Positions 60,901 to 62,911 of a stretch of 64,000 nucleotides of DNA are shown in pieces (the first letter of the stretch is position 1; each line of letters starts with the position of its first letter). The DNA is from Escherichia coli (GTDB lineage Bacteria; Pseudomonadota; Gammaproteobacteria; Enterobacterales; Enterobacteriaceae). Made by a program: the position numbers. The stretch is taken from the NCBI RefSeq assembly GCF_003790525.1, contig NZ_CP033635.1; one strand, 5' to 3'.

Positions 60901-62911
60901 AACTGCCAAGGGTATCGGCTTCGCAGGTGAAACCATCGTGGTACAGGGTGACGCAGTGGGCGTGGCGAGGATTCATTTCACCAGTGGTAAGCATCGATTC
61001 CATCTGGCTGATAAAGTGCGGGAATGTTTCATCCAGCTTCCGGTATTCGGCGTCACTGAATTTACCGGTGATACTGGCCCGGTCAGCCAAATAATGCAGT
61101 TGGTTGCCCTCCTGCACCAGACGTGCTCCCAGGCGCGGTGTGATATCCCGCTGCAGGCCCCATGTGATGTTACTCATTGATAAACCTCTTTTATTGTCAA
61201 TTCAGGGTAATACTCATCAGGCAGGCATACGGTCCGCTGCGGTCCTGGCGGCGTTCGGCGTATACCACCAGCACGCCGGGAATGTCAGGAACAGCCAGAC
61301 CGGTGTAATGACAGACACTGCCATGCCACTGGTATCTGCCGGTGCAGTATCGAAAAATGCGGGAGGCCGGATGCTGACGGTAAATCGTCATCGCCCGGCG
61401 TTTACTGATAATTCTCATGTCATACCTCAAAGCAGACCGTGTTCAGCGAACGACAATATCTGCGTACCACCGACGATAAGGTGGTCAGGCACACGGATAT
61501 CAACGAGCTGAAGCGCCTGCACCAGACGCTGCGTGATGGTCTTATCTGCCTTGCTGGGCGAGGTGTCTCCGGAGGGATGGTTATGCGCCAGTATCACTGC
61601 TGCCGCATTGAAGTACAGGGCGCGTTTGACCACCTCACGGGGATGTACCTCGGTACTGCTAATAGAACCGGCAAACAGGGTTTCGTGGGCAATCAACTGG
61701 TTCTGCTGGTTCAGATACAGCACCATAAACTCTTCGCGCTCCAGTCCCGCCATTTTCAGTTTCAGCCAGTCGCGGGCAGCCTGAGTGGAGGTGAATGCCA
61801 CGCCTGTTTCGCGCAGGTGTCGGTCAAGCAGCGTTAAGGCGCGTTTTACCGTGCGTTGTGCGGTTAGTGGTAATGCCGGAGCCAGTGGGATAAGTGACTG
61901 TTCCATCAAAAGTATCCTTAATCAATAATGCGCAGAATGGCGCTGGATTCTGGGTGCTGCAGAGAGTAATCCCGCAGCCGGTAATAGTGTTCAGTCATGG
62001 CATCGCATTCGGTGTGACAGGCGTGATGGCTGTATTCAATCAGGCAGACAGCAATACCTGCGGCTTCTGCGCTCATTTCCGCACCATTGCCGTTCATGCC
62101 GTTGAACAGATGCCATTTATCGCCCCCCTCAGCATCAGGGGCCATAAACGCACCGCCATTGCTGAGCGTGTAAAAGGACCAGAGACCACCGCTGTACTCA
62201 TCACAGAAGCGATCCATCCAGGCGAAAATACGGGGTTCCAGCGTTATCCACTGCGTGATAGCACCAAAGTGCAGCGGCCAGAAATCGAGACGCTGCTCGT
62301 CAGGTACTGGTGTTGCAGTGAGGTCAAATTGAGGTTCATTAGCGGACATCAATTCGCATTGCGTTTGTGTCGTCATGGATATTCTCCGTCAATAAAAACG
62401 CCAGCGACGATGGCTGGCGTATGGGAAATAAAGGACATGCAGGGATGATGGATGGGTGTAATCAGGAGGAGGATGCTCTGAGGATGCCGTACTGTCGGAT
62501 ATAACGGTTATGTCCTTCACCTGCATCAGGTTCAAAGCACCAGGCCCGCCAGACCATTCAACCTTCAGAGTCTCGAACCACCAGGCGGAAGTGGCTGCGC
62601 TGGTCATCTTCAATAGCGATATTTTTATACCGTCTGGTAACCGCTTCAGCCTGCTGTCGGGTGAACGGTCCCGGTGGCAACATATGAGATTCAGACATTC
62701 GGTGTACCTTAAAAGCACAAGCCCCTGACGCAGACGCGTCAGGGGCTTTGGGAGTATGCAGGTGTCGGGTGATTGTCAGTAACCGGTTTGTACCTTATAC
62801 AGCCGTAGGGTTTTACTGCCCCGGACAATTTTCACATACAGGGCATTATCTTTCGTGCCTCGCACAAAACCGGCCTGCACATCGCCCTTACAGTCACCAC
62901 TGTAGTGGTCA

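Follow-up and report, generated by a model that had tools for sequence, protein, structure and literature searches.

A DUF905 gene close to the end of a 64,000-nucleotide stretch of Escherichia coli DNA (contig NZ_CP033635.1; hereafter the window) is interrupted by a single in-frame stop codon that is followed without a gap by ATG, which raises the question of whether the gene has recently been lost or has instead been divided into two parts that are both still made. A preliminary description, made from the sequence alone, had left the matter at 'a young pseudogene or a split gene'. The frame lies on the minus strand, which that description had not given, and comprises 78 codon positions (Table 1), within the 77–79 amino acids typical of the family; the 79 codons reported earlier included the terminal stop, and the closest intact relatives are 78 amino acids long, so that the claim of a full-length frame held while its figure needed correction. 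When the stop was read as arginine, the read-through translation scored 126.6 bits on the Pfam DUF905 profile (PF06006), whose cut-off is 22.3. The two halves also matched separately, the N-terminal one with 66.6 bits (E = 2e-18) over profile positions 2–42 and the C-terminal one with 45.8 bits (E = 6e-12) over positions 44–68. Because both halves fit the profile in one frame and register, and on contiguous profile positions, the split frame is real rather than a chance resemblance. The core of the family, FRLVVRD.EGRMVWRAW.FEPDAGEG, is present in the window copy except for the stop at Arg47. Translation and the Pfam match thus bore out the description of a full-length DUF905 frame with TGA at codon 47, and the ATG does follow the stop directly (TGA at 62560..62558, then ATG at 62557..62555). 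Since the TGA interrupts the frame, the locus belongs to the DUF905 family as a pseudogene only.

Table 1. Features at and around the interrupted DUF905 gene, in window coordinates.
Feature	Position	Strand	Remarks
DUF905 (PF06006/UPF0401) pseudogene	62462..62698	-	46 codons, TGA, 31 codons, TGA
Codon 47, TGA	62558..62560	-	ancestral CGA (Arg) altered by a single C>T transition, according to codon alignment with eight relatives
ATG abutting the stop, ancestral Met48 of the family	62555..62557	-	Met48 in 112/120 homologues
N-terminal ORF, 46 aa plus stop	62558..62698	-	keeps predicted helix 14–23 and strands 27–30 and 36–42
C-terminal ORF, 31 aa plus stop	62462..62557	-	holds predicted strand 48–55 (MVWRAWCF) and disordered tail
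Antirestriction gene (KlcA/ArdB-type, PF03230)	61918..62376	-	intact; conserved downstream neighbor of DUF905
ykfB-like gene, 3′ remnant	62776..62900	-	about the last 40 codons plus stop (detected ORF, 34 aa); cut by the IS element
IS3-family element	62901..64000	-	terminal TGTAGTGGTCAAG...; runs off the end of the window
Terminator-like hairpin, upstream	62719..62748	-	13-bp stem followed by GTGCTTTTAA; ~20 nt before the DUF905 start
Terminator-like hairpin, downstream	62398..62420	-	8-bp stem, TTTTATT; between DUF905 and the antirestriction gene

The nature of the lesion became clear from the codons that intact genes carry at the same site. We compared eight related genes (drawn from six E. 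coli strains, K-12 among them, and from one Klebsiella aerogenes) and found that codon 47 is CGA in six of the eight, CGG in K-12 ykfF and CCA in one other, whereas codon 48 is ATG in seven. Because CGA prevails at codon 47, the stop is explained by a single CGA>TGA transition. The preliminary description had placed an arginine at this position in the K-12 homologue and had proposed an alignment of homologues to confirm the ancestral codon; the arginine was right, as K-12 YkfF (PDB 2HJJ) reads ...DTEGRMVWRAW..., and the alignment returned CGA, encoding arginine. At the protein level, Arg47 was found in 117 and Met48 in 112 of the best 120 homologues. So widely shared a methionine indicates that the abutting ATG represents the ancestral Met48 rather than a new start or rescue codon. 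We also considered that proteins of this family might naturally end at residue 46 and rejected the idea, because none of these 120 homologues ends there and 117 reach the last residue of the query. With a sense codon one mutation away from the stop and homologues that run past the site, the locus has the properties of a gene inactivated by a nonsense mutation, and we consider it a young and otherwise ordinary DUF905 pseudogene, with a probability of about 0.9.

A lesion of one base could in principle be an error of sequencing or assembly, in which case the true base would be C and the gene intact, as the preliminary description had allowed. Apart from the fact that only one base is involved, nothing speaks for such an error. 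E. coli SMS-3-5 (NC_010498.1) matches the window region with 100% identity, and its corresponding gene (316344..316580, ECSMS35_RS01525) is a RefSeq pseudogene entered as 'DUF905 domain-containing protein' with the remark 'internal stop', so that the finding is already in public annotation. Moreover, an identical 421-bp region including the TGA occurs in 16 of 5,426 complete E. coli genomes, which were deposited separately, differ in host, sample and accession series, and came from humans, chickens, a pangolin and river water; the TGA allele is found as well in GenBank protein records of two further E. coli strains (907672 and 908525). A stop common to 16 complete assemblies and to additional protein records excludes a base-calling error, and we give an intact gene practically no chance; the TGA stands as a real base. 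The same 16 carriers share an identical upstream IS3 junction and are ~100% identical over 22.9 kb, an extent of identity that makes them one clone and the lesion one mutational event. The 46-amino-acid product has been deposited in GenBank as a hypothetical protein (ESD11976.1, QRF48937.1), and we found no called-protein record of the 31-amino-acid C-terminal product.

Comparison with intact genes suggested that the mutation is recent. Each residue that the window allele encodes, the stop aside, occurs in at least three intact homologues, which leaves the allele with no private amino acid, and the 31 codons downstream of the stop match an intact K. aerogenes protein at 30 of 31 positions. Besides the stop, 13 synonymous and 5 non-synonymous differences separate the allele from its K. 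aerogenes counterpart, and synonymous differences outnumber non-synonymous ones in the comparison with the five closest relatives. The lack of private residues and the mostly synonymous differences imply that decay has barely begun. A single lesion without further decay fits a recent inactivation, as judged from these comparisons, but the absence of further lesions is also compatible with continued selection on both halves, the 16 carriers being near-identical. Within the carrier clone the DUF905 allele does not vary. The 5,426 complete E. coli genomes held no allele at 95–99% identity to the window copy, and the closest intact alleles have ~91–92% DNA identity, with 94% protein identity in K. 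aerogenes.

Bacterial ribosomes are known to terminate and then restart at an ATG that abuts the stop, and the alternative of a split gene builds on this: ribosomes terminating at TGA47 would restart at ATG48, and the resulting peptides of 46 and 31 amino acids would reassemble non-covalently into a working DUF905 protein. Were this true, the locus would be a case of natural one-step gene fission, tolerated because an ancestral methionine codon follows the new stop. The stop and start do abut, as TGAATG, and a GAAGG lies 4 nucleotides upstream of ATG48, with a calculated anti-Shine-Dalgarno duplex of -3.7 kcal/mol, compared with -3.9 kcal/mol at the start of the gene itself. However, both elements are ancestral, GAAGG being part of the Glu45-Gly46 codons and ATG being Met48, and both are present in intact homologues, such that nothing here has evolved for reinitiation. 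The Shine-Dalgarno score is also ordinary, in that 26–43% (roughly 30%) of the ATGs on the same strand of 24 kb equal or beat it, and so is the local RNA fold (z = +0.57). We accordingly rejected a dedicated restart signal. Coupled bacterial operons resemble the locus in having a stop that abuts an ATG and a weak Shine-Dalgarno-like sequence upstream, but their arrangement is conserved and joins two genes, whereas that of the window copy results from a single mutation inside one domain and is confined to one clone.

Further observations bear on the split gene. The interruption coincides with the hairpin turn that separates two strands, a kind of site at which split proteins can sometimes come together again, and neither half shows further decay, but the cut also divides a three-stranded sheet, and gene callers have not recorded the 31-amino-acid product. 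Among the 5,426 complete E. coli genomes the arrangement was found in one clone only. A degenerate sequence pattern with TGA at codon 47 had no match in 100,044 species-representative genomes, a result that carries little weight because the control pattern with an arginine codon at that position gave only 17 matches and the power of the scan was low. Taken together, we regard a working split gene as highly improbable, and of the two possibilities named in the preliminary description only the young pseudogene is supported (by the ancestral CGA, the 16 assemblies and the RefSeq call). Some 31-amino-acid peptide may come from a restart at ATG48, with no sign of selection for reinitiation.

A second way in which function could be retained is read-through. 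Of the stop codons of E. coli, UGA is the one read through most easily, and a near-cognate tRNA-Trp might insert tryptophan at position 47 and thereby yield a low level of functional full-length protein, for which it matters that the remaining frame is intact and full length. Nevertheless, the sequence after the stop has neither a stimulatory structure nor a SECIS-like element: an Rfam search around it returned chance-level matches only and no SECIS, and the fold has the unremarkable z-score given above. Because Arg47 is nearly invariant, the small amount of tryptophan-substituted product is unlikely to be equivalent to the original protein, and we saw no indication of selection for read-through. 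Functional rescue by a leaky stop is therefore very unlikely. We also rejected selenocysteine insertion or another programmed recoding of the UGA, given the lack of an Rfam match, the ordinary fold and the arginine of the homologues. For the pseudogene favored here, reinitiation at ATG48 or read-through of the UGA may occur incidentally, and neither would be a selected feature.

To place the stop within the protein we used an AlphaFold model of DUF905 built on 103 sequences, which had a mean pLDDT of 72. The predicted fold consists of a helix (residues 14–23) and three strands (residues 27–30, 36–42 and 48–55), and the turn that links the second strand to the third ends at the stop, which lies within the most confident region of the model (pLDDT of 92 over residues 41–50). 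According to this model, the third strand, with its highly conserved MVWRAW.F motif, and the tail would both be missing from the 46-amino-acid product, and the loss of strand 48–55 suggests a loss of function. If the pseudogene is transcribed, a 46-residue fragment without the third beta-strand would be its main product.

The surroundings of the gene suggest why its loss might have been tolerated. DUF905 is the first gene of a conserved module that continues with an antirestriction gene, a RadC/JAB gene, a DUF987 gene, a YeeU/CbeA antitoxin gene and a CbtA toxin gene, in the same order and orientation in SMS-3-5, five other E. coli strains, K. aerogenes, and the CP4-6 and CP4-57 elements of K-12. 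All five genes downstream of DUF905 are annotated as intact. In SMS-3-5 the module occupies the far end of an island of ~12 kb at the tRNA-Thr gene thrW, beside proA, which is the same site as that of K-12 CP4-6. In intact relatives, DUF905 is preceded by ykfB-like, DUF4339, DeoR regulator, DUF932 and GTPase genes, and alignment of the window with these intact islands lost homology at ~62900, where the IS3-family element begins. The transposase of this element reads in the same direction as, and toward, DUF905, and the junction lies 200 bp upstream of DUF905.

The IS3-family element cuts the ykfB-like gene and replaces the remainder of the CP4-type island. Ahead of the element the island contains an integrase, a 1,091-amino-acid hypothetical protein, a response regulator and an alpha/beta hydrolase, mostly outside the window. 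Genomes at the next level of similarity (~98% identity) begin to align only at about window position 61123, inside the YeeU-type antitoxin gene, so that in many other lineages no more than the toxin–antitoxin end of an island may be left at this site, beside yagU.

Two terminator-like hairpins flank the pseudogene. The upstream one is kept in relatives, and in strain JX2 two of its bases have changed in a compensatory manner (C>T/G>A); K-12 ypjI is followed by a hairpin nearly identical to the downstream one. A scan of 62300–63000 found no sigma-70-like promoter.

K-12 carries two DUF905 copies that differ instructively from the one in the window. YkfF, from CP4-6, belongs to the same DUF905/UPF0401 family (phmmer E = 2e-34 over residues 1–73), and CP4-6 shares with the window both the thrW/proA neighborhood and the order of ykfB-like, DUF905, antirestriction, RadC-like, DUF987, antitoxin and toxin genes. 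With ~77.5% DNA identity to the window copy over the aligned 187 nucleotides, ykfF is intact, encoding 79 amino acids and keeping CGG at codon 47, whereas the window copy has TGA47 and an upstream neighbor truncated by the IS3 element. The second copy is ypjI of CP4-57 (NC_000913.3, 2775545–2775816), and not YpjJ, which the preliminary description had mistakenly listed as a DUF905 homologue and which is annotated as DUF987. Like the window copy, ypjI is a DUF905 pseudogene directly upstream of an antirestriction gene and is followed by the hairpin counterpart already mentioned; unlike the window copy with its one lesion, it has two in-frame stops and a frameshift and is an old pseudogene. Public protein records contain further damaged DUF905 variants, one fused by a deletion to a RadC-like C terminus, one frameshifted and two truncated (49 and 52 residues). 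Together with ypjI, these variants indicate that chromosomal-island copies of this small gene commonly decay.

DUF905 is also widespread outside chromosomal islands, with at least 5,000 plasmid records containing it, 84% of them predicted to be conjugative. In the one plasmid that we inspected, the IncI plasmid pDETEC20 (NZ_CP116112.1, 48406–58606), DUF905 lies in the leading region, with ssb on one side and a ParB-like gene, psiB, psiA and ardA on the other, and has antirestriction genes on both sides. The plasmid leading-region proteins belong to the same Pfam family, at ~55–60% amino-acid identity, and share with the window copy the presence of anti-restriction or establishment neighbors; they differ in being intact and on transferable replicons, whereas the window copy is chromosomal, inactivated and in an immobile remnant. 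The association of DUF905 with anti-restriction and establishment genes of plasmid leading regions has been noted in a preprint (bioRxiv 10.1101/2025.05.22.655438). With respect to naming, NCBIfam gave no match for DUF905 and PHROGs only a family of unknown function, and our literature search found no functional study of DUF905 or YkfF. The antirestriction neighbors in islands and the position beside ssb and psiB in the plasmid leading region suggest that DUF905 may have a role as a mobile element arrives in a new host.

These observations are consistent with a simple history of the locus. A C>T transition changed CGA to TGA at Arg codon 47 in the ancestor of the SMS-3-5 clone, in which the CP4-6-like island at thrW is cut down to ~12 kb and interrupted by an IS3-family element 200 bp upstream of DUF905. 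In an immobile, IS-truncated remnant of this kind, a role of DUF905 in host entry would be dispensable, and its loss may have been neutral. For the locus itself the significance is small beyond establishing that RefSeq was correct to call a pseudogene and that no base-calling artefact is involved. It offers a clean, single-lesion case of gene decay in the remnant of a CP4-type island, of which K-12 ypjI shows an older stage. The more useful by-product is the context that it provides for the uncharacterized DUF905 family, with its conjugative plasmids and antirestriction neighbors: if the family does serve elements on arrival in a new host, it is understandable that the gene was expendable in an island remnant that no longer moves.
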